A stretch of 64,000 nucleotides of DNA from an uncultured Anaerolineales bacterium (GCA_964482225.1 CAYZWT010000019.1:3909-67908), one strand, 5' to 3'; positions 3,041 to 53,592 are shown, numbered from the stretch's first letter. Notes: generated by a model not told the origin, from the sequence alone. A program made the numbers and translations.

Positions 3041-3090
3041 GACGCGCTCGACGCTTCCGAGCGTCACGCTCAGGAGGCGTGGCGCGAGGA
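3041..3090 (-). repeat. GC-rich palindromic intergenic element, family 1 (ACGCT-N4-AGCGT hairpins)
   Basis: The reverse complement reads GATCCTCGCGCCACGCCTCCTGAGCGTGACGCTCGGAAGCGTCGAGCGCGTC. It shares GATCCTCGCGCCACGC..TGAGCGT with 11201-11229 and 41723-41760. Confidence 0.7.
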
Positions 3091-3118
3091 TCATTCGAGC
3101 CAATCTTGGAGCAAACCT

Positions 3119-7863: not shown

Positions 7864-10773
7864 ATGCAGACGCCAAGCGCGCGTTGCCGGACCATGATCG
7901 GCGTTGCCGCCGGGATCCTCTTGGCCGCCCTGGCTCTGACCATCGCGACCTCCCTGGGCGCTGCCCGCGCGCCGGGGGGCCTGCCCGGCGGCGCCGTGCT
8001 GGCCATTGCCGCACATCCACGCTCGCCAGATACCCTGGTCGCAGCCACAACCCCGGGCCTGTTCCGCAGCCAAGATGGCGGCATGGCCTGGCAAAAGCTG
8101 GCGCAACCCCAAGACCCCGGGCGCATCGGGCAGTTGCTCTTTGCCTCCGATGGCGAGGTGTTGTACGCAGCGGGAACGCTGGGGCTGGCCATGCTGCGCG
8201 ATGGGGAGACCGTATGGCAGCGGGCGAGCGCCCTGGAACAGATCGAGATCGTCGCCCTGGCCGCCAGCCCGCTAGATGGCGCCCTCTATGTGGCGTCGCA
8301 TCGGCAGGTCTGGCGTAGCCCAGATAGGGGCGCAACCTGGGCTGCCCTGGCGGTTCCCGAGGGCGCCGGCGTGATCTCCGCCCTGGCCGCCCACCCTACA
8401 AGCGCCGGGATACTCTACCTGGGCGCCGAGGGCGGCCTATTCGTCTCGGGGGATCGCGGCGCAACCTGGTATCCCGTCCGGCCCGGCCCGATACACCAAC
8501 CGGTCACCTGGGTCGGATTCTGGGAAACGAACGGGACCCGGCGGCTCTATGCCGCCAGCGCCGACGCCCTTTGGCGCTCGGCGGATGACGGCGCCACCTG
8601 GCAATCTGTGAGCCTGCCAAGCCAGATCGTCGTGCAGGAGCAGCCCATACCCTGGAGCGTATCGCCCTTTATGGTTGAGGGGGCATCTGGGCTGCCGACG
8701 CTGGCGCCGGGCGAACGCCTGCTCTCGGCGGCGAGCACAGCCGCAAGCCCGCCCCGCTTGTACCTGGGCACCACGCGCACCTTGTACGCCAGCGCCGATG
8801 GCGGCCGCTCTTGGCGCGACCTGGTAGGGCAGCCGGCAGAGGCAAGCCCGGGGCGCTCGCCTTGGCAAAAGGTCTTGTACGGGCTGCCGCCCTATCTGGC
8901 CGGGGCCGGGCTCATGCTGGCTTTGTGGGGCGCAGGCATGATGTGGCGCGAGCGGCGCGAGGCGCGCAGACAGGCGCTGGATTCGCAAGGCGCGGGCGTC
9001 CGCTGGGATGATATCATCGCCGATGCCCTGCTGCGCCATCAGCGCGTCACGCCCGACCTATTGGAGCGCATTCCGGGCCAGGCCCGAGTGCACGCCATGA
9101 TCCGCTATGTGGACGCCCATCGCGACCAAGCCCTGATCTTTCAAGATGCGCCGCCCCTGATTGCGCCGGCGCGTGGCGATAGACTGCGCGCCTTTGCCGA
9201 TACATGGAACGACCTGACCCAAAAACTGGGCCAACGCGAGGCCGCTGTGGCTGCCGCTTCGCACCTGATCGAACAACTCTGTGGCCTGCTCGGTTTTGAG
9301 CCTGTGGAACGGCGCGTCTATCGCTCGCTGGCAGGCTATATGGTCGAGGCGCCCACCCTGCGGCTCAGCCTGCCCGCGCGCTTTCCGATCATCGTCTTGC
9401 TCAAAGATTCTCTCGAACGCGAGGATGTGCGCGATATCCGCGCCCTGATGTCGGCCCTGAACGCCGTCTCGTTCTTTGCCCTGCTGATCCCCGTCGGCGC
9501 GCCTTTGGATGGCGCCCGCCCGGCGCAGGCAATGCAGGGCCTGGCGCGCGAGGGCGCCGAGGACCTGATCGTCCTGGACTATCGCGAGCTGTACGGGCTG
9601 CACCTGGCCGCCGACGCCGAGTCGGACCTGGTGCGGCGCATCCTGGACCAGGTGGATCTCACCGTCGTATCGCCCTATGTGCTTTCGGGGCCGGTGCCCC
9701 CCAAGATGTTCTTTGGGCGCGATTACGAGATCAAGGTCATCATGCGCACCGTGCAGGATCGCAGCTTTGCCATCGTCGGGGGCCGCAAGATCGGCAAGAC
9801 CTCGATCCTGAACAAGGTACACCGGCTGCTACAGCAAACCGAGGGCTATAACCCCCTCTATCTCGATTGTCACCATGTCACGACCTATGAGGACTTTTTC
9901 GAGGCTCTCTCCGTGATGAGCGAGGTGTCGGCGGAATCCGCGGCGCCCGACATGCTGCGGCGCATCGTCGTGCGCCTGCGCGGGCGCCAGGGCGATCCGA
10001 GCCAGACCCTGGTCTTTTTGCTGGACGAGGTGGATCACCTGTTGCGCTATGACCTCCAACAGGGCACCCTGCTCTTTCGCGTGTTCCGTTCTCTCTCGCA
10101 AGAGGGGCTCTGCCGCTTTGTGTTCTGCGGCGAGCGCACCCTGGATACCGCCCTGCGCGACCCCAGTTCGCCTCTGTTCAACTTTTGCAGCACGCTACGG
10201 TTGGGCTATCTGCAAGAGCGCGATGCAGAGCGGATCGTGCAGGAGCCGATGCAGGAGATGGGCATCACTTTCGAGGCGCCCGAGCTGATACCGCAGGAGA
10301 TCGTGGCCCTCTCAGGCTGCCATCCCAATATCGTGCAGGCCATCTGCCAGTATCTGATCGAGCGGATCAACCAGCGGCAGGAGCGCGTGATCCGCGCCTC
10401 CGACCTGGCCCAGGTGCGCAACTCGACCGAGTTCCGCGATCTCTTTTTCGAGGTGAGTTGGGGGAATGCCACCACGCTGGAGCGCCTGATCACCGTGCTC
10501 ATGGCGGGGCGCGGGCGCTTTGGGCCCCAGCAGGTGCGCCAGGCCCTCCAGGGCGCCAGTATCGCCCTGAGCGACGCCGAGCTAGAGAGCGTTCTGAACA
10601 ACCTGGTGCTCACCTCTCTGATCAAGCGCCAGGGCCAACAACTCGAATACACATCGGCAGCCTTTGCGCGCGTGCTGGAAGAGGCGGGCTTGGCCGAGGG
10701 GTTACGCGATGGCCTGGTGGAAAAACTGCTGGAGGAGCGGAGAGATCACTCGGCAACGCCCAGCCAAAAGTGA
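7864..10773 (+). CDS. membrane protein: signal peptide + Asp-box (BNR-like) beta-propeller + single TM + cytoplasmic STAND/AAA-type P-loop NTPase with helical C-terminus
   Basis: 969 aa. Signal-like N-terminus MIGVAAGILLAALALTIATSLGAARA. Five SxDxGxxW Asp-boxes at aa 69, 151, 194, 238 and 309. TM helix aa ~337-360 (nt 8872-8943). FFGRDYE lead-in, then Walker A GGRKIGKTS (nt 9775-9798) and Walker B LVFLLDEVD (nt 10006-10029). Confidence 0.75.
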   Translation: MQTPSARCRTMIGVAAGILLAALALTIATSLGAARAPGGLPGGAVLAIAAHPRSPDTLVAATTPGLFRSQDGGMAWQKLAQPQDPGRIGQLLFASDGEVLYAAGTLGLAMLRDGETVWQRASALEQIEIVALAASPLDGALYVASHRQVWRSPDRGATWAALAVPEGAGVISALAAHPTSAGILYLGAEGGLFVSGDRGATWYPVRPGPIHQPVTWVGFWETNGTRRLYAASADALWRSADDGATWQSVSLPSQIVVQEQPIPWSVSPFMVEGASGLPTLAPGERLLSAASTAASPPRLYLGTTRTLYASADGGRSWRDLVGQPAEASPGRSPWQKVLYGLPPYLAGAGLMLALWGAGMMWRERREARRQALDSQGAGVRWDDIIADALLRHQRVTPDLLERIPGQARVHAMIRYVDAHRDQALIFQDAPPLIAPARGDRLRAFADTWNDLTQKLGQREAAVAAASHLIEQLCGLLGFEPVERRVYRSLAGYMVEAPTLRLSLPARFPIIVLLKDSLEREDVRDIRALMSALNAVSFFALLIPVGAPLDGARPAQAMQGLAREGAEDLIVLDYRELYGLHLAADAESDLVRRILDQVDLTVVSPYVLSGPVPPKMFFGRDYEIKVIMRTVQDRSFAIVGGRKIGKTSILNKVHRLLQQTEGYNPLYLDCHHVTTYEDFFEALSVMSEVSAESAAPDMLRRIVVRLRGRQGDPSQTLVFLLDEVDHLLRYDLQQGTLLFRVFRSLSQEGLCRFVFCGERTLDTALRDPSSPLFNFCSTLRLGYLQERDAERIVQEPMQEMGITFEAPELIPQEIVALSGCHPNIVQAICQYLIERINQRQERVIRASDLAQVRNSTEFRDLFFEVSWGNATTLERLITVLMAGRGRFGPQQVRQALQGASIALSDAELESVLNNLVLTSLIKRQGQQLEYTSAAFARVLEEAGLAEGLRDGLVEKLLEERRDHSATPSQK

Positions 10774-10976
10774 TGGGGCAGAACGTCGGGCGCGGCCTGC
10801 AGCCGCAAGCCATTGGCGTTGGCTTTTTCCTGCTCCAAGGCGTGCAGGCTCACATAGCAGACATTGGGGCGACGCCCGTACTTGTGCTCATAGTGGCGCG
10901 CGGCCAGCGCGAGCTTGTCCGCAAGGGGGCGGTCTCGGGCATCATCGAACCATAACATGCCAACGCGGAGAGACAT
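10746..10976 (-). CDS. hypothetical 76-aa protein downstream of a LexA-box promoter
   Basis: The ORF MSLRVGMLWFDDARDRPLADKLALAARHYEHKYGRRPNVCYVSL.. has host-like GC3-rich codons. AGGA sits 9 nt upstream of the ATG. Its 3' end overlaps the convergent 7864..10773 gene by 28 nt. No family was recognised. Confidence 0.6.
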   Translation of the reverse strand: MSLRVGMLWFDDARDRPLADKLALAARHYEHKYGRRPNVCYVSLHALEQEKANANGLRLQAAPDVLPHHFWLGVAE

Positions 10977-11056
10977 AGACCTGTATCCTGGCGGCGTGGC
11001 CGCCGGTAGAGCCGGTAGATGAGAGCGGGGCGGCTGGCAGTTTGAGCTGTCAGCGT

Positions 11057-11129
11057 TGTGGATAGAGCCCTGATATGGAACGCGAAACGACGTGCGCCGG
11101 CCGCCCCTAGAACGGTTGTTCTATCCACA
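11057..11129. promoter_or_regulatory. pair of inverted DnaA-box-like 9-mers (CTATCCACA)
   Basis: TGTGGATAG at 11057-11065 and CTATCCACA at 11121-11129. Each has one mismatch to TTATCCACA. The second abuts the -10 of the LexA-box promoter. Confidence 0.4.
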
Positions 11130-11157
11130 GTATATACGAACATTTGTTCGATGTCAA
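11129..11157 (-). promoter_or_regulatory. sigma-70-type promoter with embedded LexA (Cheo-type) SOS box
   Basis: The minus strand reads TTGACA-tCGAACAAATGTTCGta-TATACT. The spacer is 17 nt. The perfect palindrome CGAACA/TGTTCG at 11137-11150 fits GAAC-N4-GTTC. Confidence 0.65.
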
Positions 11158-11200
11158 GACCCAATTTGCGCTGTAACTACCCCGAAGACAGATTCAGATG

Positions 11201-11229
11201 ATCCTCGCGCCACGCTTCTGAGCGTCGAG
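11201..11229 (+). repeat. GC-rich palindromic intergenic element, family 1
   Basis: ATCCTCGCGCCACGCTTCTGAGCGTCGAG. A related half (GCGTGACGCTCGGAAGCGTGACG) follows at 11281-11303. Confidence 0.65.
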
Positions 11230-11436
11230 ATCGCCAAGCCGCCAAGCCGGAGAAAAACCGGTTCTGGCTCTCCCCTGCGCGCGTGACGCTCGGAAGCGTG
11301 ACGAGAGATTCCGGAAAGCGACACGAACCCATTTTCATCCTTGGTGGTGCGCTATGCGCATGAGGTCTATTCAGATTTTGGGGGACGAGTTCATGACCGC
11401 GTGTGCAAACAGGTATGCGCGCAAGACGCCCGCCCG

Positions 11437-11615
11437 GTAGGGGCGCGGCATGCCGCGCCCCTACCATAAAACCATAGAAAAACATATTAAACACGTATGG
11501 ACAGAACTGACGCCAGACGCATGTATGCGTCCATAGCGAGGCTGTGTGCTCACCGTTTGCAGGATATTGGCATCACTTCCTGGTCAATTAGGAACTCGTC
11601 CCCTTGAATCTGAAC
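11437..11615 (+). repeat. 28-bp perfect palindrome plus 158-bp interspersed repeat, copy A
   Basis: GTAGGGGCGCGGCA/TGCCGCGCCCCTAC occupies 11437-11464. Positions 11458-11615 align without gaps to 49405-49562 with about 7 mismatches. The repeat contains the hairpin GACGCAT-GT-ATGCGTC and an AT-rich head CCATAAAACCATAGAAAAACATATTAAAC. Confidence 0.9.
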
Positions 11616-11713
11616 TGATATCCCAAAGCATGCCGGGCATTGGGGAATTGCCAGCCCTCGCCAGGTTGCCTAGAATGGAACTGTCGCGCTGCTGTCAAAG
11701 GAGCAAGTCCGGC

Positions 11714-12867: not shown

Positions 12868-14406
12868 ATGCGAGTTCTCTACCTGGACTGCGATACCTTG
12901 CGGCCCGATCACCTGGGCTGCTATGGCTATCATAGAGACACCTCACCCAACATAGACCGGCTGGCCCGCGAGGGCCTGCGCTGCACCAACTATTACGCCT
13001 CGGATGCCCCTTGCCTGCCCTCGCGGGCCGCGCTGTTCTTGGGGCGCTTTGGCATCCACACGGGCGTCGTCAACCACGGCGGCACAACGGCAGATCCACG
13101 CCTGGAAGGGGCCACGCGGGGTTTTCAACAGTCGCGCGCCGAGGCAAGTTGGATGCAAGCCATGCGGCAAGCAGGGCTCTATACCGTCTCCATCAGCCCC
13201 TATGCCGAGCGCCACTCGGCCTGGTGGTTCTATCGCGGGTTTAACGAGGCGCACAACACGGGCAAGTGGGGCATGGAGCGCGCCGACGAGATCGCGCCGG
13301 TGGCGATAGATTGGATTCAGCGCAACGGTAGCAGGGACAACTGGTTCCTGCAGGTGAATATGTGGGACCCCCACACGCCGTTCCGCACGCCCCTGGCGTA
13401 TGGGAACCCCTTTGAGGGAGAGCCCATCCCCGATTGGATCACCGAGGAGAAAATCAAGCAGGACTATGCGGGGTATGGCCCCCATTGCGCCCAAGACCCG
13501 GCCGGCTTTGGCCCCAACGATACCGAGCGCTGGCCCCGCCTGCCGGCCGAGATCACCTCGCTGGAGGACTATCGCAAGTGGATCGATGGCTATGACATCG
13601 GCATCCGCTACATGGACGATCATATCGGCCTGATCCTGGATGCGCTGGCGGAGCAGGGCGTGCTGGATGATACGGTGATCATCGTCTCTGCCGATCATGG
13701 CGAGAACCAGGGCGAGCTGAACATCTATGGCGACCACCAGACCGCCGACCAGATCACCTCGCGGGTGCCGCTGATCGTGCGCTGGCCGGGGCTGGAGGGG
13801 GGCCGCGTGGATGACGCCCTGCACTACAACCTGGATCTGCCGCCCACCTTGGCCGAGATGCTGGGGATAGACGCCCCCGCCAGGTGGGATGGCCGCAGCT
13901 TTGCCGCGACTCTGCGCGAGGGCGCCCCGGCGGGCCGCGATTACCTGGTGTTGAGCCAGTGCACCTGGAGCTGCCAGCGCGCCGTGCGCTGGGACGAGTG
14001 GATCCTGATCCGCACCTATCATACAGGGCTCAAGGATTTCCCGCCGGTGATGCTGTTCAACCTGGCGGAGGACCCCCACGAGCTGCACGACCTGGCGGCG
14101 GCCCGCCTCGAGATCGTGCAGGCCGGGCTGGCCCGCCTGGAAGAGTGGCAGGCCGAGATGCTGGCCGGCCTGGAAGAGTGGCAGGCCGAGATGCTGGCCG
14201 GCTCCCCGGAGGCCGCCGACCCCCTGTGGACGGTGATGCAGGAGGGCGGACCGTACCACGCTCGGGGCTGGCTGCTCTCCTATTGCGAGCGGCTGCGGGC
14301 CACGGGGCGCGGCCACCATGCCGATCGGCTGTTGGCCCAGCGCCAGCCCAACGAATGGGTCTACCCCGACCGGCCCGGCGATTGGAAGGCGGTACTGGGC
14401 GAGTAA
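12868..14406 (+). CDS. sulfatase (formylglycine-dependent arylsulfatase family)
   Basis: N-terminus MRVLYLDCDTLRPDHLGCYG. CxPxR formylglycine motif in DAPCLPSRAAL. Also SADHGE. No signal peptide is evident. Confidence 0.9.
   Translation: MRVLYLDCDTLRPDHLGCYGYHRDTSPNIDRLAREGLRCTNYYASDAPCLPSRAALFLGRFGIHTGVVNHGGTTADPRLEGATRGFQQSRAEASWMQAMRQAGLYTVSISPYAERHSAWWFYRGFNEAHNTGKWGMERADEIAPVAIDWIQRNGSRDNWFLQVNMWDPHTPFRTPLAYGNPFEGEPIPDWITEEKIKQDYAGYGPHCAQDPAGFGPNDTERWPRLPAEITSLEDYRKWIDGYDIGIRYMDDHIGLILDALAEQGVLDDTVIIVSADHGENQGELNIYGDHQTADQITSRVPLIVRWPGLEGGRVDDALHYNLDLPPTLAEMLGIDAPARWDGRSFAATLREGAPAGRDYLVLSQCTWSCQRAVRWDEWILIRTYHTGLKDFPPVMLFNLAEDPHELHDLAAARLEIVQAGLARLEEWQAEMLAGLEEWQAEMLAGSPEAADPLWTVMQEGGPYHARGWLLSYCERLRATGRGHHADRLLAQRQPNEWVYPDRPGDWKAVLGE
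14137..14202 (+). repeat. perfect in-frame 33-bp tandem duplication inside the sulfatase gene
   Basis: CTGGAAGAGTGGCAGGCCGAGATGCTGGCCGGC occurs twice (14137-14169 and 14170-14202), encoding LEEWQAEMLAG x2. Confidence 0.95.
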
Positions 14407-14570
14407 GGGGCTCGATGGGGTAGCAGCGTGGCCGAGGGGGCGCCCTCGTATCCGATCGAGCGCCCCCCGGCCAGGATCAGCTCTCGGGGCGCGCGGGCTG
14501 CCCCTGCTGCAAGGCGGGCGCCGAAGATCACACAGATGCGCAGTTAGGAACGATCAACCGGAGATCCCAC

Positions 14571-16277
14571 ATGCAAGCGATGCCCGTTGCGATGGCCGCT
14601 ATCTCTGCCTCCTGGATCGCCTTGGCTCTCTTCTTTCAGGGCCTCGGGACCGCCTTTCTGGCACTAATTCCTTCACGGTACCGCTCTGGATCCTATCTTG
14701 AACATTCTTTTGTTTTTGGATTTTCTTGCCTAGTTATTTTTCTGCAATTATGGAACCTTTTCTTTCCTATTAGCTTTATCGCCTACATACCTCTGATTCC
14801 AATTTCAGCCTGGGGTAATGCTAGATATTACATATCATTACGTGAAACGAGCAGAAAAAGACTCCTGTTTTTATTTCGAGATGCTTTATTCTGGATCGCT
14901 ATCTCTATTCCTCTCTCTAATTGGTCCCTTGCGCATGGTATGCCAGGTGATACTGGTCTCTATCATATACCATTTATGAATTGGGTAAGAACATATCCTC
15001 TTCCAGTTGGGTTGGGCAATCTGCACGGTCGCCTTGCTTTTAATAACTCTTACTATTTATATGGAGCATCTCTATGGAGAATTCCAGGTCTGGATGCAAG
15101 TCATTTATGCCACGGCCCTTTTTTTCTTATTCTATTGCGTATAATCTGTAAAAGTCTATATAAGACTATCTTTTTTGCAGATAAAGTTCGTTTGAGTGAT
15201 TTATTTATTCTGGGGATTTCTCCCTATCTGATTCATCTTACTAGGGGTTATCTCAATAGTTATGCGTCTGATTTGATGGTATTTGTATTATCTGTGTCTA
15301 TTATTGTCATATTCATCGAGTATCTATACGGATCCCAGATTAATCCATATGCTCTTATTTTGCTGTTGTTCATGAGCTTATCTGCTATCATGGTCAAGAT
15401 AAGCTCATTGGGGTTAGTTGGCCCTATATCCCTTCTGGCCCTGATATGGTACATCAAGCGCGGTAACGCCGAAGCTGTTCGAGGCAGGAATCTTGTAGGC
15501 ATCGGAGCTCTATCGTTCCTCGGGTTGTGGGGGTGGGTCTGGAGGAGCGTACTAGCCAGCGGGTATCTTATATACCCCATTTCATGGCTCCCAGTGCCTG
15601 TAAGTTGGCGTGTCCCTTCTGAGAAGGTTGCGGAAGAGGCGCGATGGATTGTCAGTTGGGCACGAGCACCCGGGGAGCATTGGGCCGACGTGTTAGGCAA
15701 CTCGCGGTGGCTCTTGCCATGGATCGAACACCATGTTGCCAGATGGTTTGATGTCTCTTTTCCCGTGGCCCTAGCTGTCCTTATGCTAGTAGTTGCGCTC
15801 CTGAGGAGAGTACTGACGTCGCCTAGCAAGACCGTAAAGGGCAACTTTGCTTTCGCGGCGGTCTTTGTCTCAATTCTTGCCAATATAGCTTATTGGTTTC
15901 TTACAGCACCCGGGAGTCGATTTTCTATTGGTTTATTCTGGTTTTTATTTGCTTTTTCCTTCTCCTCCGCTTTATATTGTGACCAGAGGTGGAGCCGTGG
16001 TATAATTGCCAGAATTGCACTATGTATTACATTGGGGCTTTATATGCCTGTTATACATAGAATGAGTTTCTTTTACGGACCAGAGCAGAGACGTATCACG
16101 CCGACAGTAGAATTGAACGAATTCATCACAGATTCGGGTTTGCTGCTATTTGTTCCTGCTAAGGGGTATTCTTGCTGGGAAAGCCCCTTGCCCTGCACGC
16201 CCTACCCGGACTCCGCGCTGCGTTTGCGCCGATCTGGGGACCTAAGCAGCGGCTTTGAGATACGAGTCAAAGAGTAA
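14571..16277 (+). CDS. polytopic membrane protein, putative O-antigen/oligosaccharide polymerase (Wzy-like) or GT-C-type glycosyltransferase; compositionally foreign
   Basis: 568 aa with more than 10 predicted hydrophobic helices. From ~14700 to ~16200 the G+C drops to about 30-48% per 60-nt line, against the mid-60s in the flanks. It uses AGA/AGG, ATA and TTA codons that are rare elsewhere. Functional call rests on topology and the glycosyltransferase neighbourhood only. Confidence 0.6.
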   Translation: MQAMPVAMAAISASWIALALFFQGLGTAFLALIPSRYRSGSYLEHSFVFGFSCLVIFLQLWNLFFPISFIAYIPLIPISAWGNARYYISLRETSRKRLLFLFRDALFWIAISIPLSNWSLAHGMPGDTGLYHIPFMNWVRTYPLPVGLGNLHGRLAFNNSYYLYGASLWRIPGLDASHLCHGPFFLILLRIICKSLYKTIFFADKVRLSDLFILGISPYLIHLTRGYLNSYASDLMVFVLSVSIIVIFIEYLYGSQINPYALILLLFMSLSAIMVKISSLGLVGPISLLALIWYIKRGNAEAVRGRNLVGIGALSFLGLWGWVWRSVLASGYLIYPISWLPVPVSWRVPSEKVAEEARWIVSWARAPGEHWADVLGNSRWLLPWIEHHVARWFDVSFPVALAVLMLVVALLRRVLTSPSKTVKGNFAFAAVFVSILANIAYWFLTAPGSRFSIGLFWFLFAFSFSSALYCDQRWSRGIIARIALCITLGLYMPVIHRMSFFYGPEQRRITPTVELNEFITDSGLLLFVPAKGYSCWESPLPCTPYPDSALRLRRSGDLSSGFEIRVKE

Positions 16278-16407
16278 CCCTGGAGCCTCTCCCGCAAGAT
16301 AGTCCTGCCGAAAAGGCTACGATGCGTACAGTCGGAGATCTGGTGCAACAACCGACCTTATCTGGCAGTGCTCCACTTCCCCTTCAGAGGCGGGTCATCC
16401 AACACGC

Positions 16408-17559
16408 TTAGGCAACCGCAAAGCGTTCATACACGCGCTCGTAGGCCGAAATCATGGTATTGAGGGAATAGCGCTCGCGGGCCCACGCCTGGCCTGCTCG
16501 GCCCAGGCGTGCACGCTCGTCAGGATCATCGAGCAGCCGCAGGATCGCCTCGGCCAGGGCCGGGGCATCGCGGGGCGGCACCACCAGCGCCCCTGGGCCG
16601 GCCGTCTCGGCGCTGGCGCCGGCGCTGGTGGTCGCCACAGGGGTTCCGCAGGCCAGCGCCTCGATGATCGGGATGCCAAAGCCCTCCAGCAAGCTGGGCA
16701 ACACAAACAGATCCGCCAGGCTATAGTAGGCGGGCAGCTCGTCGTCCGGCACATAGCCCGCCTCGATCAGATGGCTCCGCCGGGCGCCCAGCGCCTCTAG
16801 CACGCGCTCGCGGTAGGCGGCCTGCCAACGTCCCACAACCACCAGGCGCACATCCTGCGGCAGGGCGTGCATGGCCCGCGCCAGGTATTCGAGCCCCTTG
16901 CGCGGCGAGCAGAACCCCACAAAAAGCAACACCCGCTCGTTGGCCAGCCCCAGCCGCCGCCGCAGGGGCGTGGGGTCCGTGGGGCGCAGCCGCGCGAGAT
17001 CAATGCCTGTGGGAATCACCGTCACGCGCTCGGCGAGCACGCCATAGCCCTTGGTGAACGCATCGGCGGTGGCCTGGCTCACCGAGATGAGGTGTCGAGC
17101 GCGAAAGAGGGCGGGCCGCTCTGCCCAGGCGAGCGCCGCGCGATAGTACAGGGTCTTGCCGTGCAGCGCCAGCTTGCCTGTGTGGTAGGGCCGCCCGTCA
17201 TCGCTGGTCAGGCGCTGCCGGAACGATTGGTGCAGGCTGGCCAGGAACGGCCCGCGATAGCGCCAGGCAAAGTGCACATCGGCCACGTGCACGAGATCGA
17301 AAGGCGCAGCCGCGTGCAGGCGCGAGACCGAGGGCGCGGCTGCCCAGGCGAACTCGATCCAATCGCCGCGCCCCACGCCTACGCGGTGCACCTCCACCCC
17401 ATCCAGGCGCTCGCGGCGCGCCGCGCCTGGGCGGTGGCGCGTCACCACGGTTATATGGTGGCCCCGCGCTGCCAGGCCCGTCGCCAGCGTCTCGCCATAA
17501 ACGGCCAACCCCGAGCTACGATAGGGGACATAATCCAGGTTGACCAGACAGATCCTCAG
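16408..17559 (-). CDS. glycosyltransferase family 4 (GT-B)
   Basis: N-terminus (L)RICLVNLDYVPYRSSGLAVYGETLATGLAARGHHITVVT. C-terminal motif EGFGIPIIEALACGTPV. The start cannot lie upstream of 17586 (stop of the preceding gene). The family-typical MRI.LV start maps to CTG 17559, 5 nt after GGGGAGG. Confidence 0.8.
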   Translation of the reverse strand: MRICLVNLDYVPYRSSGLAVYGETLATGLAARGHHITVVTRHRPGAARRERLDGVEVHRVGVGRGDWIEFAWAAAPSVSRLHAAAPFDLVHVADVHFAWRYRGPFLASLHQSFRQRLTSDDGRPYHTGKLALHGKTLYYRAALAWAERPALFRARHLISVSQATADAFTKGYGVLAERVTVIPTGIDLARLRPTDPTPLRRRLGLANERVLLFVGFCSPRKGLEYLARAMHALPQDVRLVVVGRWQAAYRERVLEALGARRSHLIEAGYVPDDELPAYYSLADLFVLPSLLEGFGIPIIEALACGTPVATTSAGASAETAGPGALVVPPRDAPALAEAILRLLDDPDERARLGRAGQAWARERYSLNTMISAYERVYERFAVA

Positions 17560-17585
17560 GGTAACCTCCCCTGCACAGCGTATGC

Positions 17586-18230
17586 TCAGTCCGAGATGGT
17601 AACGACGGTCAATGGCTCCTCGGTCACCTGGTCGGCAATGATCTCTACGACGACATCCTGGCCGGTTTCCAGGTTGTGGGCCAGCACCAGGGTCAGCGGA
17701 TGCTTGATGACAAGGGCATACAGCCCGGGCTCCAGATCGGCGAAAGCATAGCGCCCCTCTCGATCTGTCACAGCTACGGGGGCGAGTTCCTCCACAACGC
17801 TGGCAATGGGCGCGATCTCGCCGGAGACATTGCGGTGCACCTGGGCCAGGTAGAGGGTCCAACCTGCCAGGGGCTCGCGGGGACGGATGTCGCTCTCGCG
17901 CATGATTTGGCCGATCAGATGGCCCCGTCCGGGGGCCGGCTCGGCCAGGGGCGCCAGGGTGGGCAGCGCCTCCAGCGTGGCCTCCAGGGCCACGGTCGGC
18001 TCGGCGCCCGGATAGGCCCCCACCGGAGCGGGGTACCCTGGCGCGGGATAGGCCCCTTCAGGGGCGCCTTCCGTTGCCGGGGCGCCAACTGTGGGGCTCG
18101 CTACGGTCTCGGCCTGGACAGCGGTTTCGTCGGGTGACTCGGCAACGGGCGTGGCAGGGCTCCCGGCAGAGCACCCCGCCAGCAGTGCAACGAGCAACAG
18201 AGCGGCGATCAAGTGGGAAAAGCGTCGCAT
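17586..18230 (-). CDS. lipoprotein with carboxypeptidase-regulatory-like (prealbumin fold) domain
   Basis: MRRFSHLIAALLLVALLAGCS lipobox. C-terminal VTDREGRYAFADLEPGLYALVI motif. AAGGAGA SD precedes ATG 18230. Confidence 0.7.
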   Translation of the reverse strand: MRRFSHLIAALLLVALLAGCSAGSPATPVAESPDETAVQAETVASPTVGAPATEGAPEGAYPAPGYPAPVGAYPGAEPTVALEATLEALPTLAPLAEPAPGRGHLIGQIMRESDIRPREPLAGWTLYLAQVHRNVSGEIAPIASVVEELAPVAVTDREGRYAFADLEPGLYALVIKHPLTLVLAHNLETGQDVVVEIIADQVTEEPLTVVTISD

Positions 18231-35681: not shown

Positions 35682-35814
35682 GCTCTCCTCTCACCCGGGC
35701 GGATTCTAGCGCAAAGGGGCGTCGCTGTCCATCCGGCAGAGCCGATGGCGTCTGTTCAGATTTGGGGGATGAGATCATGACCCCGCGCTGACAGCTATGT
35801 GCGCTCAAGACGCT

Positions 35815-35837
35815 GGAGGGCGGGCGTCTCGCCCGCC
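35815..35837. repeat. GC-rich hairpin element, family 2
   Basis: GGAGGGCGGGCGTCTCGCCCGCC (8-bp stem GGCGGGCG/CGCCCGCC). It is identical to the 23-mer at 49339-49361, and a loop variant lies at 49001-49023. Confidence 0.85.
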
Positions 35838-36247
35838 TATGCTGCTTGGAGCGTCACGGGCAAGACGCCCGCGCCACAAGCTTACCCGCCGCTGTCGCCT
35901 AGTGTTCGTCGCTTCCCGCCAATTTCGTGCTGATACGTCCCGTGTTGCCGCCAGGACCGTGCCCACTTTTGTTGTGCGTCGTGTTCGCCCATGGCTACCG
36001 TGCAGTTGGCGGGAAAGGGTAATCGGGCAGGACAGGCACGCTTGTCAGCAGCCAAACCTGGCGGCCCTGAAGGCTACAGAAGCGCAATAGACAGTAATGC
36101 CGTCGAGCATACTGCCTGGGCACATCCCCCGATTTCGCCGCTCCTGCAAGGGCACGGTGCACGAGAGCCAGTTTCCGGAATCCGCAAGGCAACGTACAAT
36201 GGACTCAGACGCCCGTTCACAGTCCAGCGCGATAGGGAGGCACGGTC

Positions 36248-38782: not shown

Positions 38783-39898
38783 ATGAACCATCGGCCTGAC
38801 ATGCTTGCGCACAACGACGATCTGGACTGGATCACGCCCTTGCTGCGTGGCATCTTTCAAGTGCAGGATGTCACCGTCGGAGCGCTGGGCGGCGCGGCCA
38901 CGCGCCTGCGGGGCCGCTTCCTCGTGCCCTCCGAGCGCGCCTATGGCGCCCTGGCGCCCGCTTTTGAGGCCCACGGGCGCACGCTGCTGCTGCGCCATGA
39001 ACAAGGCCAGGACGTGATCTATGGCCTGTACGGCGTCCACCGGCCCACGCCCAACAACCGCTGGTTGCCTCCTGTGCTGGCCCTGCTCACCGTGATTTCG
39101 ATCCTGGGCACCTATCTGTTGATGTACGGCATGGAAGAGCTCACCTGGGCCAGCGCCCGCGCCGGGCTGGGCCAGGCGGCCCAGTTCACCCTGGCCCTGG
39201 TGGTCGTTCTGTTGGCTCACGAGATGGGCCACTATCTGGCAGCCCGCCGCCTGGGCCTGGCCGTCACCCTGCCCTACTTGATCCCCTTTCCCTTCAGCCC
39301 TTTTGGGACGATGGGAGCGGTGATCCGCATGAAGGACATCCCGCCCAACAAGCGCGCCATGCTGCTCACGGGCGCCGCAGGCCCCCTGGCGGGCCTGGCC
39401 GTCACCCTGCCCATCCTGATCGTGGGGCTGCTGCTCTCCGAGGTGCGCGCCCTGCCCGCCTCCGGCAGCTATATCGTCGAGGGCAACTCGCTCCTCTATC
39501 TGTTGGCCAAGTACCTGGTGCATGGCGAGTGGCTGCCCTCTGCCACCCACGATCTGTTCATGCACCCGTTGGCCTTTGCCAGTTGGGCCGGCTTGCTGGT
39601 CACTTCTTTCAACCTGATCCCCGCCGGGCAACTGGATGGCGGCCATATCGCCTATGCCTGGCTGGGCAGCAAGGCGCGCTACCTGACCTGGGGCATCATC
39701 GCGCTGCTGGCGGGGCTCGGCTTTGTGTGGCCCGGCTGGTTCCTGTGGGCCGGGCTGATCTTTGTCCTGGCGCGAACCCAGCAAGAGCCCCTGGATAGCA
39801 TCACGCCCCTGAGGCGGCGCGACATCGCCATCGCCATCGGGCTGCTGGTGGTCCTGGTGCTCACATTCACGCCCATGCCGTTGCGCTTTATCAACTAG
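38783..39898 (+). CDS. site-2 protease family (M50) metalloprotease
   Basis: LLAHEMGHYLAARR (HExxH) and NLIPAGQLDGGHI. Polytopic. Confidence 0.85.
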   Translation: MNHRPDMLAHNDDLDWITPLLRGIFQVQDVTVGALGGAATRLRGRFLVPSERAYGALAPAFEAHGRTLLLRHEQGQDVIYGLYGVHRPTPNNRWLPPVLALLTVISILGTYLLMYGMEELTWASARAGLGQAAQFTLALVVVLLAHEMGHYLAARRLGLAVTLPYLIPFPFSPFGTMGAVIRMKDIPPNKRAMLLTGAAGPLAGLAVTLPILIVGLLLSEVRALPASGSYIVEGNSLLYLLAKYLVHGEWLPSATHDLFMHPLAFASWAGLLVTSFNLIPAGQLDGGHIAYAWLGSKARYLTWGIIALLAGLGFVWPGWFLWAGLIFVLARTQQEPLDSITPLRRRDIAIAIGLLVVLVLTFTPMPLRFIN

Positions 39899-39934
39899 CC
39901 AATTCGGACCTGCGTCGAATACAGAAGGTGGACC

Positions 39935-41704
39935 ATGCTCAACCGCTCGCCCATGTGGAAGACCGCTCTGATCGGCATCGCCGCCGCGATCCTGGTCATC
40001 GCCGGGCTGGCCATCGTGATCTGGGTGACCGTAGCCCGGGAGCGCATCGCCGCGCCCGAGCCCACACCTGCCTGGACGCTAACCCCGCGCGCCTCGGCCA
40101 CCCTCGATCTCACGGCAACATTGGAACCCTCGGCCACGCCCATCCCGCCGGATGCTGCCCTGGGCATCGTGCAGGACTATACACCGGGCGCCCTGATCAT
40201 CGTCATCACCCCCGTCCAGGGCAGTGTGAACCAGATCATCGTGCCGGAGAACCTCCAGGTATCCTGGGAGGACGGGCGCCGTGCCTCGCCCAGCGAGATC
40301 ATGCGCGGGCAAACGATCTACGCCGAGGGGTCGCTGGACGCCCTGGGGCGCTTGGTGGCCGCCTCGATCGTGATCATTGACCCGGGCGCCGCCGCCACGG
40401 CCACGCCGCCGCCCACCGGGACGCCCACCGTGGGCCCCACGCCCACGCCATCCATCCCACGGCGGGCCTGGCTGGGCGAGTACTATGCCAACATGAACCT
40501 GAGCGGCGCGCCGGTGCTGACGCGCCAGGATGCCGAGATAGATTTTCAGTGGGGCACCGGCTCGCCCGGCCCCAACGTGCCCGCCGACCGCTTTTCGGCG
40601 CGTTGGCGCGGCTATTGGCCCTTTGAGGGCGGCGTGCACAACTTTGTGGCCTATTCCGATGACGGCGTGCGCATCTGGGTGGATGGCCAGTTGGTCGTGG
40701 ATCAGTGGGTAGACCAATCCGGGGCCTTTGCCACAGGCCAGGTCTATCTCCAGAGCGGCGATCACCTGGTCGAAGTCGAGTACTATGAGAACGCCCAGCG
40801 GGCCGAGATCCGCGTCACCTGGGAACTGCAAGGCGCTTTTGATAACTGGAAGGGCGAGTACTTTGACAACACGGCGCTGCAAGGCGAGCCTGTGTTGGTG
40901 CGCAATGATGAAGAGATCAGCTTTAACTGGGGCGCCGGTTCGCCGCATCCCCAGGTGCCGGCGGATAGTTTCAGCGTGCGCTGGACCCAGGAGATCACCT
41001 TTGAAGAAGGGGCCTATCGCTTTCGGGCGCGGGCCGATGATGGCGTGCGCGTCTGGGTGGCCAATAGCCTGCTCATTGATGCCTGGCAGCCCAACATTGA
41101 CCAGACCTTTACCGGCTATATCTGGCTGCCCCAGGGAACGCACCCGGTGCGCATCGAGTATTTCGAGATGGGCGGCAACGCCTCGATCCAGGTGTGGCGC
41201 GAGCATATCACCACCTTTGCCAACTGGCGGGGCGAGTACTATACCAACCCCGATCTGGCGGGCAACCCGCGCTTTGTGCGCGATGACGAAAAGATTGACT
41301 TTGACTGGGGGCAGGGATCGCCGGGGCATGGCCTGCCCAACGACGGCTACTCGGCGCGCTGGACGCGGCGCGTGCAACTGAACGCCGGGCGCTATAATCT
41401 CTGGGCCATTGCTGACGATGGCGTGCGGGTGTATGTCAACGGGCGTCTGGTCATTGATGCCTGGCGCGATTCGGGCGCCGAGCGGTACGATGGCGCCATA
41501 GACCTGGAAACCGGCGAGCATCGCATCGTGGTCGAATACTATGAGCGCATTGGGATGGCCGTGATCCAGTTCGGCTGGGAGTGGATTCCGCCCGCCACGG
41601 CCACACCCACGCCCACCCCAACGGCGACGCCGACAGCTACGCCGACAGCTACGCCTACGGCGACCGAGACGCCGACGTTGACGCCCACCACGCCAACGCC
41701 CTAG
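39935..41704 (+). CDS. membrane-anchored protein with three PA14 domains and Thr/Pro-rich tail
   Basis: N-terminal [23 protein letters not shown]. Three repeats start W(L/K/R)GEY(Y/F).N and contain DDGVR(I/V)(W/Y)V. The C-terminus is [33 protein letters not shown]. Confidence 0.85.
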
Positions 41705-41722
41705 CGCGCTCGGTCTTGGAAC

Positions 41723-41760
41723 TCTCGCGCCACGCTTCTGAGCGTCAGGAGCGCGGAGAC
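41723..41760 (+). repeat. GC-rich palindromic intergenic element, family 1
   Basis: TCTCGCGCCACGCTTCTGAGCGTCAGGAGCGCGGAGAC, with inner hairpin ACGCT-TCTG-AGCGT. Confidence 0.7.
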
Positions 41761-41768
41761 GCAGAAAT

Positions 41769-41803
41769 GGCAAAGTACGGTGGCTCTGCCACCGTACTTT
41801 GCC
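41769..41803 (+). terminator. 15-bp perfect hairpin downstream of the PA14 gene
   Basis: GGCAAAGTACGGTGG-CTCTG-CCACCGTACTTTGCC. No clear U-tract follows. Confidence 0.55.
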
Positions 41804-41830
41804 CACTCGATCTATTTCTGAGGTACATCC

Positions 41831-42736
41831 GTGAAAAGAGAACACCGACCCACTCGCTTCTATAACACCTTTGGCCCCCACGCCCCGGCCCTGACGCTGG
41901 ATGACGGCGATATCCTGGTCGTCGAGACGCTGGACTCGCGGGGGCGCAACGGCCACATGGAGACGGTGGCCGCTCCCTCGAACCCCCTCTCGGGGCCCTT
42001 TTATGTGCGGGGCGCCGAGCCGGGCGACGCCCTGGAGGTGGAGATTCTAGAGTTGCGCCCCAACCGGGCCTATGGCTACTGCGGCACCTCCGTGGCTGAG
42101 CACGTGGTGGAACCCGCCCATGTGCGCCAACTGCCCCCGCGCGAACTGGCCGCCTGGGAGGTGGATGCAGCGGCCTGGACGGCTACCCTGACCGAGCCGG
42201 ACACCAAACTTGGGCGCTTGACCCTGCCGCTGGACCCCATGCTGGGCTGCATCGGCGTCGCCCCCAAGGGCGGGCAGGCCATCTCCTCGGCCACCTCGGC
42301 GGAGCACGGCGGCAACATGGACTATCGCGGCTACCGCAAGGGCGTCACGGCCCTGTTCCCCGTGTTCGAGCCCGGGGCGCTGCTCTTTGTGGGTGATGGC
42401 CACGCCGTCCAGGGCGATGGCGAGATCGTAGGCATGGGCATCGAGATCTCGATGGAGGCCGAGCTGCGGGTGCGTGTGCGCAAGGGCGCGGGGCTCCGCT
42501 GGCCCCGGGGCTATACCGACCAGTACCTCTTTGCCGTGGGCAATGCCCGCCCCCTGGATCAGGCCCTCCAACACGCCACCACCGAGCTGCTGGCCTGGCT
42601 GGAGGATGACTATGGGCTGGACCCTGTGGCCGCCAGCATCCTGTTGGGCCAGTGCATCCGCTACGACATCGGCAATGTGTTCGATCCGGCCTATACCGTG
42701 GTCGCCCGGATCGCGCGCGCGCTGCTGCCCGCATGA
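41831..42736 (+). CDS. acetamidase/formamidase family protein
   Basis: 301 aa. GGNMDYRGYRKG and FVGDGHAVQGDGEI motifs typical of the FmdA/AmdA family. GTG start after GAGGT. Confidence 0.85.
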   Translation: MKREHRPTRFYNTFGPHAPALTLDDGDILVVETLDSRGRNGHMETVAAPSNPLSGPFYVRGAEPGDALEVEILELRPNRAYGYCGTSVAEHVVEPAHVRQLPPRELAAWEVDAAAWTATLTEPDTKLGRLTLPLDPMLGCIGVAPKGGQAISSATSAEHGGNMDYRGYRKGVTALFPVFEPGALLFVGDGHAVQGDGEIVGMGIEISMEAELRVRVRKGAGLRWPRGYTDQYLFAVGNARPLDQALQHATTELLAWLEDDYGLDPVAASILLGQCIRYDIGNVFDPAYTVVARIARALLPA

Positions 42737-48614: not shown

Positions 48615-48693
48615 ATGAGGGCGACCGGCACAGCAAAGCAGGAACAGCTCGCTTTACCATGACTGCGACCTTGAAAAGGCCCTGGCAAGAACC

Positions 48694-48722
48694 TTGTGTT
48701 AATAGAACAAATGTGCTATAAT
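48694..48722 (+). promoter_or_regulatory. candidate promoter with LexA-like half-degenerate box
   Basis: TTGTGT-17 nt-TATAAT. The spacer contains GAACAAATGTGC (48705-48716), one mismatch from GAAC-N4-GTTC. Confidence 0.4.
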
Positions 48723-48778
48723 TCGCCTGTGCGGGCGAGGCCCGCCCCTCTGGTCGCCTCGGAGCTCTCCCGCCCCAG

Positions 48779-48811
48779 GGCAGAGCGTATCGCATGTCAA
48801 CTGCCTTTTTT
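48779..48811 (+). terminator. weak hairpin followed by T6
   Basis: GGCAG-17 nt-CTGCC then TTTTTT. A T-run is unusual in this GC-rich DNA. Confidence 0.3.
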
Positions 48812-48828
48812 ACGAAACGAACCCATTT

Positions 48829-48865
48829 TGGGGATAACCATTTGGGATAAATAGGGTTATCCCAA
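48829..48865. promoter_or_regulatory. three weak DnaA-box-like motifs in an AT-rich patch
   Basis: TGGGGATAA (rc TTATCCCCA) at 48829-48837, TTGGGATAA at 48842-48850, and TTATCCCAA at 48857-48865. The last two form the inverted repeat TTTGGGATAA-N6-TTATCCCAAA. Confidence 0.4.
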
Positions 48866-48964
48866 ATCCCCCTCTCCTGATCCTGTCTACCCGCCCTCTC
48901 GGTGTGGTCTTGGCGGCAACACGAGGGGGGGGGCGCCTCAGTTACGCAAGTGGGTAGGAGCCAG

Positions 48965-49194: not shown

Positions 49195-49259
49195 TTTTCC
49201 CCAGGTTGCCCACAGGTTATCCACAGGGACACGCGAGTTATCCACAGGTGTTTTCCACA
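49195..49259 (+). promoter_or_regulatory. array of five same-strand DnaA boxes
   Basis: TTTTCCCCA 49195, TTGCCCACA 49206, TTATCCACA 49217, TTATCCACA 49238, TTTTCCACA 49251. Each is followed by GG. Two are perfect consensus boxes. Confidence 0.7.
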
Positions 49260-49338
49260 GGGCCAGGGCGCACGTCGTATCAGTTCAGAATTGGGGGGGA
49301 AAGAGGCCAACACGTTGGGGACGGCGGCAGCGAACCGT

Positions 49339-49361
49339 GGAGGGCGGGCGTCTCGCCCGCC
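49339..49361. repeat. GC-rich hairpin element, family 2
   Basis: GGAGGGCGGGCGTCTCGCCCGCC, identical to 35815-35837. Confidence 0.85.
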
Positions 49362-49363
49362 TT

Positions 49364-49562
49364 GTAGGGGCGCGGCCAACGGTGGCGCAACCACCGTCCC
49401 TCGCCCCCTACCATAAAACCATAGAAACACACATTAAACACGTATGGGCAGAACTGACGCCAGACGCATGTATGCGTCCATAGCGAGGCTGTGTGCTCAC
49501 CGTTTGCAGGATATTGGCATCACTTCCTGGTCAATCAGGAACTCGTCCCCTCAATTCTGAAC
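49364..49562 (+). repeat. compound hairpin plus 158-bp interspersed repeat, copy B
   Basis: GTAGGGGCG..CGCCCCCTAC hairpin with inner ACGGTGG-CGCAA-CCACCGT. Positions 49405-49562 align to 11458-11615 with about 7 mismatches. Confidence 0.9.
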
Positions 49563-49593
49563 AGTTGCCGCATGTCCTCGCCCTGCCCACGGT

Positions 49594-49622
49594 TTGACAC
49601 CCCGCCCCGTTTGGCGCATAAC
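49594..49622 (+). promoter_or_regulatory. candidate promoter of the dehydratase gene
   Basis: TTGACA-17 nt-CATAAC, 41 nt upstream of ATG 49663. Confidence 0.5.
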
Positions 49623-49662
49623 TTGCGGGTCTGGATCACCAACCCGTTAGCAGGAGCACAAG

Positions 49663-50832: not shown

Positions 50833-50929
50833 CGCGCACGCCTGGGCCTGCTTTGCGGCCAGGGCGCGGGTTGGGTAGAATGGGCATTGTCCCTCGGGCA
50901 ACCGGTTGCGCCGCCCGAGAGCAGACGCC

Positions 50930-51856: not shown

Positions 51857-51882
51857 CCGCTGCGCCCCGTTGGGCGTGCAAC

Positions 51883-51924
51883 AAACAGCGGGCCGGATGA
51901 CGCCATCCGGCCCGCTGTTTTTGT
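51883..51924. terminator. bidirectional rho-independent terminator
   Basis: 17-bp perfect stem AAACAGCGGGCCGGATG-ACGC-CATCCGGCCCGCTGTTT flanked by T-runs on both strands, between convergent genes. Confidence 0.85.
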
Positions 51925-51936
51925 GCAACTGCGAGG

Positions 51937-53427: not shown

Positions 53428-53535
53428 GCGAACCAGGCCTCCTATTGATACAAACACGCCCCCGCGCCCCCATGGGCGCTCGATGGGCGACGTGCTCACT
53501 ACATATGACCCTCCTTACGTCAAAAGGTTGCAGGT

Positions 53536-53578
53536 TTGACGCTTTACGAGCCTGCGCGTACAATTAGGTCTGCTAATT
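53536..53578 (+). promoter_or_regulatory. marR promoter with overlapping palindromic operator candidate
   Basis: TTGACG (53536-53541)-17 nt-TACAAT (53559-53564). The inverted repeat AATTAG-GTCTG-CTAATT (53562-53578) overlaps the -10. Confidence 0.55.
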
Positions 53579-53592
53579 GTTAGAGGTGCTAA

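Follow-up and report, generated by a model that had tools for sequence, protein, structure and literature searches.

Integration of mobile DNA at a set distance from bacterial promoters has been described for TnGBS ICEs, the ISLre2 family (p-MULT 3) and the ISKra4 group (p-MULT 4). In each case a gap of 15-17 bp separates the inserted element from the -35 box of the sigmaA promoter downstream (Guerillot et al. 2014, PMC3942029; for ISLre2 and TnGBS see also Brochet 2009; Guerillot 2013). The p-MULT enzymes are Mutator-like DDE transposases with an N1-N2 signature motif, and their promoter insertion is oriented, with IR-right beside the promoter; near-perfect IRs are associated with both orientations (PMC3942029). 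The same study lists Chloroflexi among the host phyla of p-MULT 4 and proposes, by analogy with Ty3, that targeting depends on an interaction with the transcription machinery. A 2022 survey found the preferred location of ISLre2 and ISKra4 elements to be 50-250 bp from genes (PMC9208149). Oriented integration at a fixed distance from a promoter is documented for only these two related transposase lineages, and its mechanism is unproven.

The DNA examined here is a stretch of 64,000 nt (the window) from an uncultured member of the Anaerolineae. A preliminary description had reported in it a direct repeat of 158 bp, about 95% identical between its two copies, and had offered a structured ncRNA or leader, a MITE-like element and a cis-acting replication or partition site as possible identities. 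The MITE-like option was the correct one: the repeat belongs to an element with TIRs and 8-bp target-site duplications (TSDs), whose dispersed copies, at least 13 in number, have flanks unrelated to one another, and a related genome has an empty site. The best explanation, to which we assign a probability of about 0.8, is a MITE family with an 8-bp TSD and promoter-targeted, oriented insertion that is mobilised in trans by a promoter-docking transposase. As a MITE the element is ordinary, and the noteworthy part is the geometry of its insertion. Its oriented, promoter-locked position at about -62 is a variation on a targeting behaviour that is known but rare.

Extent, termini and mobility of the element

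The 158-nt repeat is real. Positions 11458-11615 (copy A) align without gaps to 49405-49562 (copy B) with 7 mismatches (95.6% identity), and the uninterrupted identical stretch, put at roughly 85 bp in the preliminary description, measures 87 nt (11502-11588). The 28-bp palindrome at its head is perfect, as claimed, and both the AT-rich head and the hairpin GACGCAT-GT-ATGCGTC are found in each copy. Nothing comparable occurs elsewhere in the window, where the core sub-motifs are confined to the two copies. The start of the repeat at 11458/49405, on the other hand, was misplaced. Pairwise alignment of wider regions follows a weaker homology further upstream, and the repeat is the right two-thirds of a larger, non-coding unit of 256-293 bp. 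No terminal inverted repeat had been noticed because the unit was truncated; TIRs appear once it is extended, and the GTAGGGGCG hairpin that was thought to precede the repeat is actually an internal module of the element.

When the copies are aligned together, their boundaries are sharp, with GTATCAGTTCAGAATTGGGGGG on the left and CCCCTTGAATCTGAACTGATAC on the right. The family ends are imperfect TIRs, GTATCAGTTCAGAATTGGGG ... CCCCTTGAATCTGAACTGATAC, flanked by the 8-bp duplications. Over about 22 bp, the left TIR GTATCAGTTCAGAATTGGGGGG and the reverse complement of the right TIR CCCCTTGAATCTGAACTGATAC agree at 18 of 22 positions, with no difference between the two ends in the outer 13 bp, GTATCAGTTCAGA. 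A repeat finder also paired 11367-11396, in inverted orientation, with the 3' end of copy B, and in the predicted fold of each copy the 5' arm and the 3' end of the 158-nt unit close a structure of 250-290 nt. The element has no coding capacity: overlapping ORFs lack the GC3 signature of the genome and are disrupted by an indel between short and long forms of the internal hairpin. Promoter-like sites were found only in the flanks, and neither promoter-like nor terminator-like sites inside the element. The coordinates of the features are collected in Table 1; loci other than the window are given as L001, L002 and so on.

Table 1. Features of the element and its surroundings in the window, and predicted promoters beside copies at four other loci
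Feature	Position	Strand	Basis or remark
Copy B, complete MITE, 292 bp, long internal hairpin	49277-49568	+	Sharp homology edges against 11 other copies with unrelated flanks; absent at orthologous site L020/L021
Left 8-bp TSD of copy B, CGCACGTC	49269-49276		7/8 match to 49569-49576
Right 8-bp TSD of copy B, CGCATGTC	49569-49576		Deleting 49277-49576 restores colinearity with L020, with one 1-nt gap
Left TIR of copy B, GTATCAGTTCAGAATTGGGGGG	49277-49298	+	Pairs with right end in folds
Right TIR of copy B, CCCCTCAATTCTGAACAGTTGC	49547-49568	+	Variant common to L013
25-bp internal GC hairpin module, GGAGGGCGGGCGTCTCGCCCGCCTT	49338-49362		Also solo elsewhere in the genome
Internal hairpin, long form, 48 nt, GTAGGGG...CCCCTAC	49364-49411		Copy alignment
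Copy A, apparent recombinant MITE, 256 bp	~11366-11621	+	Right two-thirds (~11417/11427 to 11621) canonical; left arm the reverse complement of a right-end variant
Internal hairpin, short form, perfect 28-bp palindrome GTAGGGGCGCGGCATGCCGCGCCCCTAC	11437-11464		Same form in L001, L002, L005, L010, L011, L016
158-nt stretch, conserved right part of the element	11458-11615	+	Gapless alignment
Right TIR of copy A, CCCCTTGAATCTGAACTGATAT	11600-11621	+	Copy alignment, TIR profile
Different small repeat, end ...GGATCATCTGAATCTGTCTTC (minus-strand reading)	11184-11365	-	Resembles L012 8804-8995 and L005 9716-9771; adjoins copy A on the left
Short diverged superfamily member, 189 bp, upstream of scpA	35748-35936	-	TIR profile matches at both ends
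Predicted host promoter, dehydratase gene, TTGACA-N17-CATAAC	49594-49622	+	-35 starts 25 nt after the end of copy B (flank position 26)
Predicted host promoter, M50 protease gene, TTGCCA-N17-TAGAAT	11648-11676	+	-35 starts 26 nt after the end of copy A (flank position 27)
Predicted promoter, L001			-35 TTGCCC, spacer 17, -10 TATAAT
Predicted promoter, L012			-35 TTGCGC, spacer 17, -10 TAGAAT
Predicted promoter, L016			-35 TTGCCA, spacer 17, -10 TATACT
Predicted promoter, L009			-35 TTGACA, spacer 17, -10 TATATA

The interior of the element is an assembly of palindromic modules. Its internal hairpin exists in two alternative forms, of 28 nt and 48 nt, and the long form is flipped in L009. The GC hairpin module GGAGGGCGGGCGTCTCGCCCGCCTT also has exact solo copies in the window (35814-35838) and in L002 (7958, 8082 and 8207), L008 (8426), L012 (5308 and 8996) and L016 (2240), and its read depth peaks at about 900x, compared with 16.6x in the flanks.

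A search with a core 20-mer in a JGI sludge metagenome series returned 16 loci, which after removal of re-sampled duplicates gave 11 further copies with unrelated flanks and, with copies A and B, a total of at least 13. A recent local duplication, with copies limited to the two loci first seen, is refuted by this copy number. One locus, L017, is 99.99% identical to the window, which places the window in the same metagenome series. Within each of four sludge samples, read depth over the unique flanks is the same from copy to copy (about 16x, 22x, 23.5x and 25x), and relative to the flanks the element core is covered about 13-fold and the right end about 35-40-fold. The equal flank depths together with these ratios indicate that the copies belong to one genome, from activated sludge, and they suggest that this genome carries about 13 canonical copies alongside further relatives with the same termini, and about 35-40 related ends. 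The closest named homologues of the host are Anaerolineae/Chloroflexota MAGs. The sample is a small one, since all copies come from one community and one genome, and all 13 of the 13 copies are intergenic.

The 8-bp TSD matches at all positions in L003 and L013, at 7 of 8 in copy B, L001 and L016, and at 6 of 8 in L010 and L012; two copies have longer duplications (19 bp in L009, about 14 bp in L011). Over the whole family, 58 of 80 TSD positions agree, where chance would give 27.5% (P=9e-17). The site of copy B has an unoccupied counterpart in the related MAG GCA_002329325.1 (L020, confirmed by the Logan contig L021), where the gene order is the same, the dehydratase is 95% identical and the gap between the fucosidase and dehydratase genes is only 266 bp. 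Taking out the element together with one 8-bp repeat leaves the window colinear with this locus except for a single nucleotide. L020 is the empty site for copy B and the element is mobile; insertion proceeds by a cut and staggered join (DDE-type) that duplicates 8 bp of the target. The TTATCCACAGG boxes, which the preliminary description had taken for DnaA-box-like motifs upstream of the copies, are indeed present outside the element, but they are host sequence, conserved at the empty site and at the more distant orthologous locus L024.

The family shows every testable feature of a MITE, being short (under ~600 bp) and non-coding, with TIRs, a TSD of fixed length, and dispersed copies with presence/absence polymorphism; only the autonomous partner is missing. 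Its termini were absent from about 70 kb of loci from three related MAGs, and neither an exact core 24-mer nor a degenerate 22-mer covering both TIR versions had a match in 185,579 species-representative genomes.

Register of the right end relative to host promoters

Anchored at the right end of the element, flanks that are otherwise unrelated share a -35-like hexamer at position 26/27, a 17-nt spacer and TAnnnT at position 49/50, followed by an RBS and then a start codon. These promoters are consensus predictions of the sigma70-type -35/-10 form. Of 12 copies, 7 have the strict pattern TTG-N20-TA-N3-T at flank offset 26/27 (P=5e-23), given a background of 41 occurrences in 325,406 positions (1.26e-4 per position), and most of the remaining copies have near-misses in the same register. 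Three diverged relatives keep it as well: L001:837-1149, the short copy L016:2174-2329, and the window repeat that ends at 11184, which lies 26 nt upstream of a strong minus-strand promoter at 11157-11129. In total, about 15 elements including the diverged relatives have a right end that faces a predicted promoter within +/-1 nt of the same register. When flanks from four metagenomes are pooled, their consensus closes with ...CCCCCTTG, in which TTG occupies flank positions 27-29; this consensus overlaps the loci already analysed and is not independent of them.

The promoters were in place before the element arrived. The dehydratase promoter block is conserved in the element-free orthologous loci L020, L022, L023 and L024, and the M50 promoter in the element-free relatives L027 and L029, so the promoters predate insertion and are host-borne, not element-borne. 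Insertion is oriented and position-specific, with the right end 25-26 bp upstream of the -35 of predicted sigma70/sigmaA-type promoters, which puts the duplicated 8 bp at about -61 to -54. Between the right end and the promoter, the intervening 26 nt have no consensus. The preliminary description had noted that the copies end 50-100 bp upstream of a plus-strand gene, and this was a real clue, as such a distance follows from promoter-targeted insertion.

Exceptions to the register are the right end at 35748 in the window, at 16 nt, and the short copy L012:448, at 62 nt; right-end variants inside composite repeats have no adjacent promoter. The right end faces a gene start in 12 of 13 copies. 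Since about half of the copies are located between divergent genes, we do not count this as a separate line of evidence; statistically, the promoter register carries more weight. Near L009, L010, L002 and L016, promoters are also found beyond the left end, and since their distances vary (23-30 nt) we treat them as incidental divergent promoters.

Could selection have produced this pattern from insertions that were random within intergenic DNA? Only copies at about -62 would then have been retained, as an upstream activating, insulating or regulator-binding module (a 'mobile upstream element'). Such a role would agree with the uniform orientation of the copies and with their location immediately outside the stretch that RNA polymerase contacts, and regulatory rewiring is plausible at copy B, which parts the conserved TTATCCACAGG box array from the core promoter. 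However, a +/-1-nt register over about 15 independent insertions at functionally unrelated genes is hard to obtain by selection alone, and neutral insertions further upstream should have persisted, whereas none is seen. Inside the element we detected no promoter-like or known binding motif, and for targeted insertion a precedent exists (PMC3942029). Selection could sharpen the register pattern, but it is unlikely to have produced +/-1 nt at unrelated genes, and we consider this explanation an improbable one overall.

RNA, REP and replication readings

A structured ncRNA, or a riboswitch-like 5' leader of the adjacent genes, would be in keeping with the folding of both copies, which is far better than that of shuffled controls (z = -8.2 and -5.2), and with their location upstream of co-oriented genes. 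Both strands fold equally well, however, which points to DNA palindromes and TIRs rather than to RNA. One metatranscriptome contains low-depth contigs that match family members, but with an RNA depth of 2-3x, on contigs of other copies and with DNA carry-over possible, these matches are uninformative. The earlier remark that no known RNA family is recognisable was borne out by Rfam, which gave no match for the whole window at the gathering threshold and none for the two loci at E<=1. Covariation, which the preliminary description had proposed as a check, lends no support to a consensus fold built from 12 copies: RNAalifold gives an unfavourable covariation term (+2.07), and most variants disrupt predicted pairs. 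As the host promoters are situated downstream, the element is outside the 5' UTR, and the genes downstream of the copies are functionally unrelated. The TSDs and the empty site, finally, indicate mobility and argue against an RNA, which we regard as very improbable.

The second of these readings is a REP/REPIN palindrome mobilised by a RAYT (Y1), or a palindrome-associated element derived from IS200/IS605. The internal palindrome GTAG...CTAC resembles REP heads, and the short GC hairpin module does stand solo at many sites. Against this, the whole unit has TIRs and 8-bp target duplications, and Y1-transposase elements are not known to produce either. Within the window GTAGGGGCG is found only inside the two copies, and there is no RAYT or TnpA gene among the window genes tested. 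The chance that this reading is right seems to us just as slight.

A cis-acting replication origin or partition site with DnaA boxes and an AT-rich unwinding element is effectively refuted and has a negligible probability. In its favour, perfect TTATCCACA boxes lie immediately to the left of copy B, and the element has an AT-rich internal segment. The boxes are outside the element, though, and relatives conserve them at the empty site; near copy A there are just two, each with one mismatch and 240-300 bp away. GC skew is flat with no switch, there are 13 to 40 copies per genome, and the neighbouring genes encode a fucosidase, a dehydratase and an M50 protease with no dnaA or dnaN adjacent.

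Proposed targeting mechanism, known systems and diverged copies

On the reading that we favour, a transposase encoded elsewhere in the genome would mobilise this MITE family in trans and, as is proposed for the p-MULT elements, would find its targets by binding to RNA polymerase or sigma factor already seated on a promoter. The lack of a consensus in the 26 nt next to the promoter suggests that the promoter complex, not the target sequence, would be read. The element would thereby come to lie at the upstream edge of the RNA polymerase footprint, a 'safe haven' in which the core promoter and the genes are spared. That genes and core promoters are left intact would explain why such elements are tolerated, although insertion may still part a promoter from regulatory sites further upstream, copy B being an instance.

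An autonomous element or transposase with matching termini was sought among the window genes tested, in 163 kb of host DNA, in the 185,579 representative genomes and in plasmids, and none was found. Pfam scans of 20 window proteins gave no transposase, a plasmid collection searched by blastn in 'distant' mode gave no match, and the 163 kb of host DNA held no IS-sized repeats (>=330 bp). Since no autonomous partner came to light, mobilisation in trans and the family of the transposase are inferred.

In its insertion the family behaves like the p-MULT promoter-targeting elements, to which it may or may not belong. With ISLre2 and TnGBS the present family shares fixed-distance, oriented insertion upstream of predicted sigmaA-type promoters with the right IR on the promoter side, an intergenic 'safe-haven' site at 50-250 bp from the next gene, and asymmetric IRs that correlate with a fixed orientation. 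In contrast, ISLre2 and TnGBS are autonomous (IS or ICE), measure 1.5-50 kb and occur mostly in Firmicutes, whereas the element described here is a non-coding sequence of 256-293 bp in Anaerolineae. In the published entries compared, their distance from IRr to the -35 is 15-17 bp and their DR is 9 bp, as against 25-26 bp, an 8-bp DR and unrelated termini in the present family.

The ISKra4 group (e.g. ISKra2/4/5/6, ISCasp2 and ISAcce1; the ISKra elements are named after Ktedonobacter racemifer) likewise inserts upstream of promoters, and Chloroflexi are listed among the hosts of p-MULT 4 elements, the present host being a member of the Chloroflexota. The group entries compared have GGG(T/C)G... 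ends, a 9-bp DR and near-perfect IRs with insertion in both orientations, whereas the present family has GTATCAG... ends, an 8-bp DR and one orientation. The distance to the promoter is also about 10 bp shorter in the ISKra4 group; of the present elements only the short relative at 35748-35936 is at the canonical 16 nt, from TGGACA-N17-TAGAAT. Of the p-MULT features, then, oriented promoter-facing insertion was found here, and the 15-17 bp distance, the 9-bp DR and the termini were not found in the main family. Among the entries examined in Table S1 of PMC3942029, no IS termini match those of the present family, and the word 'MITE' is absent from that paper.

Bacterial MITEs (Correia/NEMIS, RUP, Nezha and IS-derived families) resemble the present element in being short, non-coding, multi-copy and intergenic, with TIRs and TSDs, strong hairpin potential and a tendency to recombine between copies. 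To our knowledge, the bacterial MITEs described so far choose short targets such as TA, never a fixed position relative to a promoter -35/-10. A literature search for promoter-targeting bacterial MITEs surfaced none, which cannot prove their absence. The integration sites of Ty3 and of Dictyostelium TRE5-A are likewise set by bound transcription machinery and not by target sequence; these are eukaryotic retroelements that use RNA polymerase III genes via TFIIIB/TFIIIC, and they have no known mechanistic or evolutionary tie to the present element.

A more specific proposal, which we put forward tentatively and consider rather doubtful, is that the family may be the footprint of an undescribed promoter-docking transposase in Anaerolineae, either a divergent p-MULT or an unrelated DDE enzyme. 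It would act at about -62, one helical turn further upstream than TnGBS, ISLre2 and ISKra4 and on the same DNA face, probably via RNA polymerase (sigma region 4 or alpha-CTD). If this were true, promoter-guided integration would be wider and mechanistically more diverse than the two known lineages suggest, and the non-autonomous copies would systematically cut core promoters off from their operator or activator sites, in the way that copy B stands between its promoter and the conserved TTATCCACAGG array. A small element of this kind offers a compact substrate for studying how a bacterial transposase reads a promoter, be it through RNA polymerase, sigma factor or DNA shape, and its copies in effect flag the active promoters of an uncultured member of the Anaerolineae. 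Here, too, mobile DNA comes time and again between core promoters and the regulatory sites upstream of them, and it favours rearrangements. Copy A would be one example and a possible 38-kb deletion between copies A and B another; a junction at locus L018 may represent this deletion or else an assembly join.

In copy A, canonical homology begins only at about 11417-11427. On the minus strand, its left arm (11366-11395) fits the right-end profile, and it also matches right-end variants in L008, L012 and at window position 35750. From these matches, copy A appears to be a recombinant with two right-type ends around a shared palindrome, the structure expected from recombination between inverted copies. 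It probably arose later, by inversion between two inverted copies at that palindrome, and such recombination would be the reason why only the right 158-200 nt of copy A match copy B well. The broken synteny on the left of the M50 protease gene supports the recombinant origin: in relatives, a divergent ahpC-like gene precedes the M50 gene at a distance of 151 bp, whereas in the window this arrangement is broken, with the M50 promoter and the order of the M50 and sulfatase genes kept.

A junction between copies A and B and rearrangement around copy B

L018, a 36-kb contig (ENA ERZ27252300 k141_134469), runs from the left flank of copy A of the MITE straight into the right flank of copy B. The crossover point falls within the identical core, part of the 158-nt repeat common to the two copies, with the variant sites being A-type on the 5' side and B-type on the 3' side. 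The junction is either a real deletion of 37,947 bp through recombination between the two copies, or a join made by the assembler through the repeat.

A locus of GCA_040364295.1 (L022) was compared with window 38783-42736 and 49663. In this relative a block of M50-like, PA14-repeat and FmdA-like genes is inverted and directly adjoins the dehydratase gene, and this gene order indicates that related genomes differ by rearrangements around the copy B locus.

Regulatory-type sequences

The (G)TTATCCACAGG direct repeats fit the DnaA-box consensus. Since they are kept at L020, the empty site for copy B in the related MAG GCA_002329325.1, and partly in the more distant orthologous locus L024, these repeats are a host regulatory array of the divergent region between the fucosidase and dehydratase genes. 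The array and the dehydratase promoter are now 300 bp apart, with copy B between them. Compared with L020, this intergenic region of the window contains another insertion, of about 350-566 bp. A 19-bp direct repeat, CTCGTCAAGGCATTCGGGG, brackets one part of it and includes the fucosidase promoter's -35 region, and the insertion holds a promoter-like site of its own with a LexA-box-like spacer.

A strong predicted promoter points toward a 76-aa ORF for which no Pfam match was found, and its spacer contains a perfect Cheo-type LexA box, CGAACATTTGTTCG. Spacers like GAACAAATGT were also found in promoter-like sites at window 48694 and at position 3971 of L011, a sludge-metagenome locus of the host genome.

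Small repeats and a low-GC island

A 25-bp GC hairpin, GGAGGGCGGGCGTCTCGCCCGCC, is present alone at many sites, and three of these in L002 are spaced about 125 bp apart. Some MITE copies (L009, L010) have this hairpin's loop (GTCTC or GAGAC) and also the long GTAGGGG hairpin in flipped orientation, which suggests that palindromic modules are inverted in place. Another short palindromic repeat, CGCGCCACGCTTCTGAGCGTC / GACGCTTCCGAGCGTC, is represented by fragments dispersed through intergenic DNA. These fragments and the MITEs show that the host genome is rich in small repeats. The 3' part of a sulfatase gene carries a 33-bp tandem duplication, in perfect register and 97% identical, that would give an 11-aa repeat in the product. 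A low-GC island (approximately 52% GC vs 65% elsewhere), which may have been acquired horizontally, includes a 568-aa ORF having no Pfam match.

Positions of repeats, promoters and genes in the window and in loci of the host genome
Feature	Position	Strand	Remark
L018 matching segments	window 8716-11615 + 49402-53832		
(G)TTATCCACAGG repeats	window 49205-49260		4-5 units, just left of copy B
Further insertion	window 48617-48964		
CTCGTCAAGGCATTCGGGG	window 48597 and 48965		
Predicted promoter	window 11129-11157	minus	TTGACA-N17-TATACT
LexA box	window 11137-11150		
76-aa ORF	window 10746-10976	minus	
Solo GGAGGGCGGGCGTCTCGCCCGCC hairpin	window 35814-35838; L002 7958, 8082, 8207; L008 8426; L012 5308, 8996; L016 2240		
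CGCGCCACGCTTCTGAGCGTC / GACGCTTCCGAGCGTC fragments	window 3066-3107, 11198-11242, 41724-41762		
Sulfatase gene	window 12868-14406		
Tandem duplication	window 14127-14192		
Low-GC island	window 14400-17700		
568-aa ORF	window 14571-16277		
GT4 glycosyltransferase	window 16408-17862	minus	adjoins 568-aa ORF
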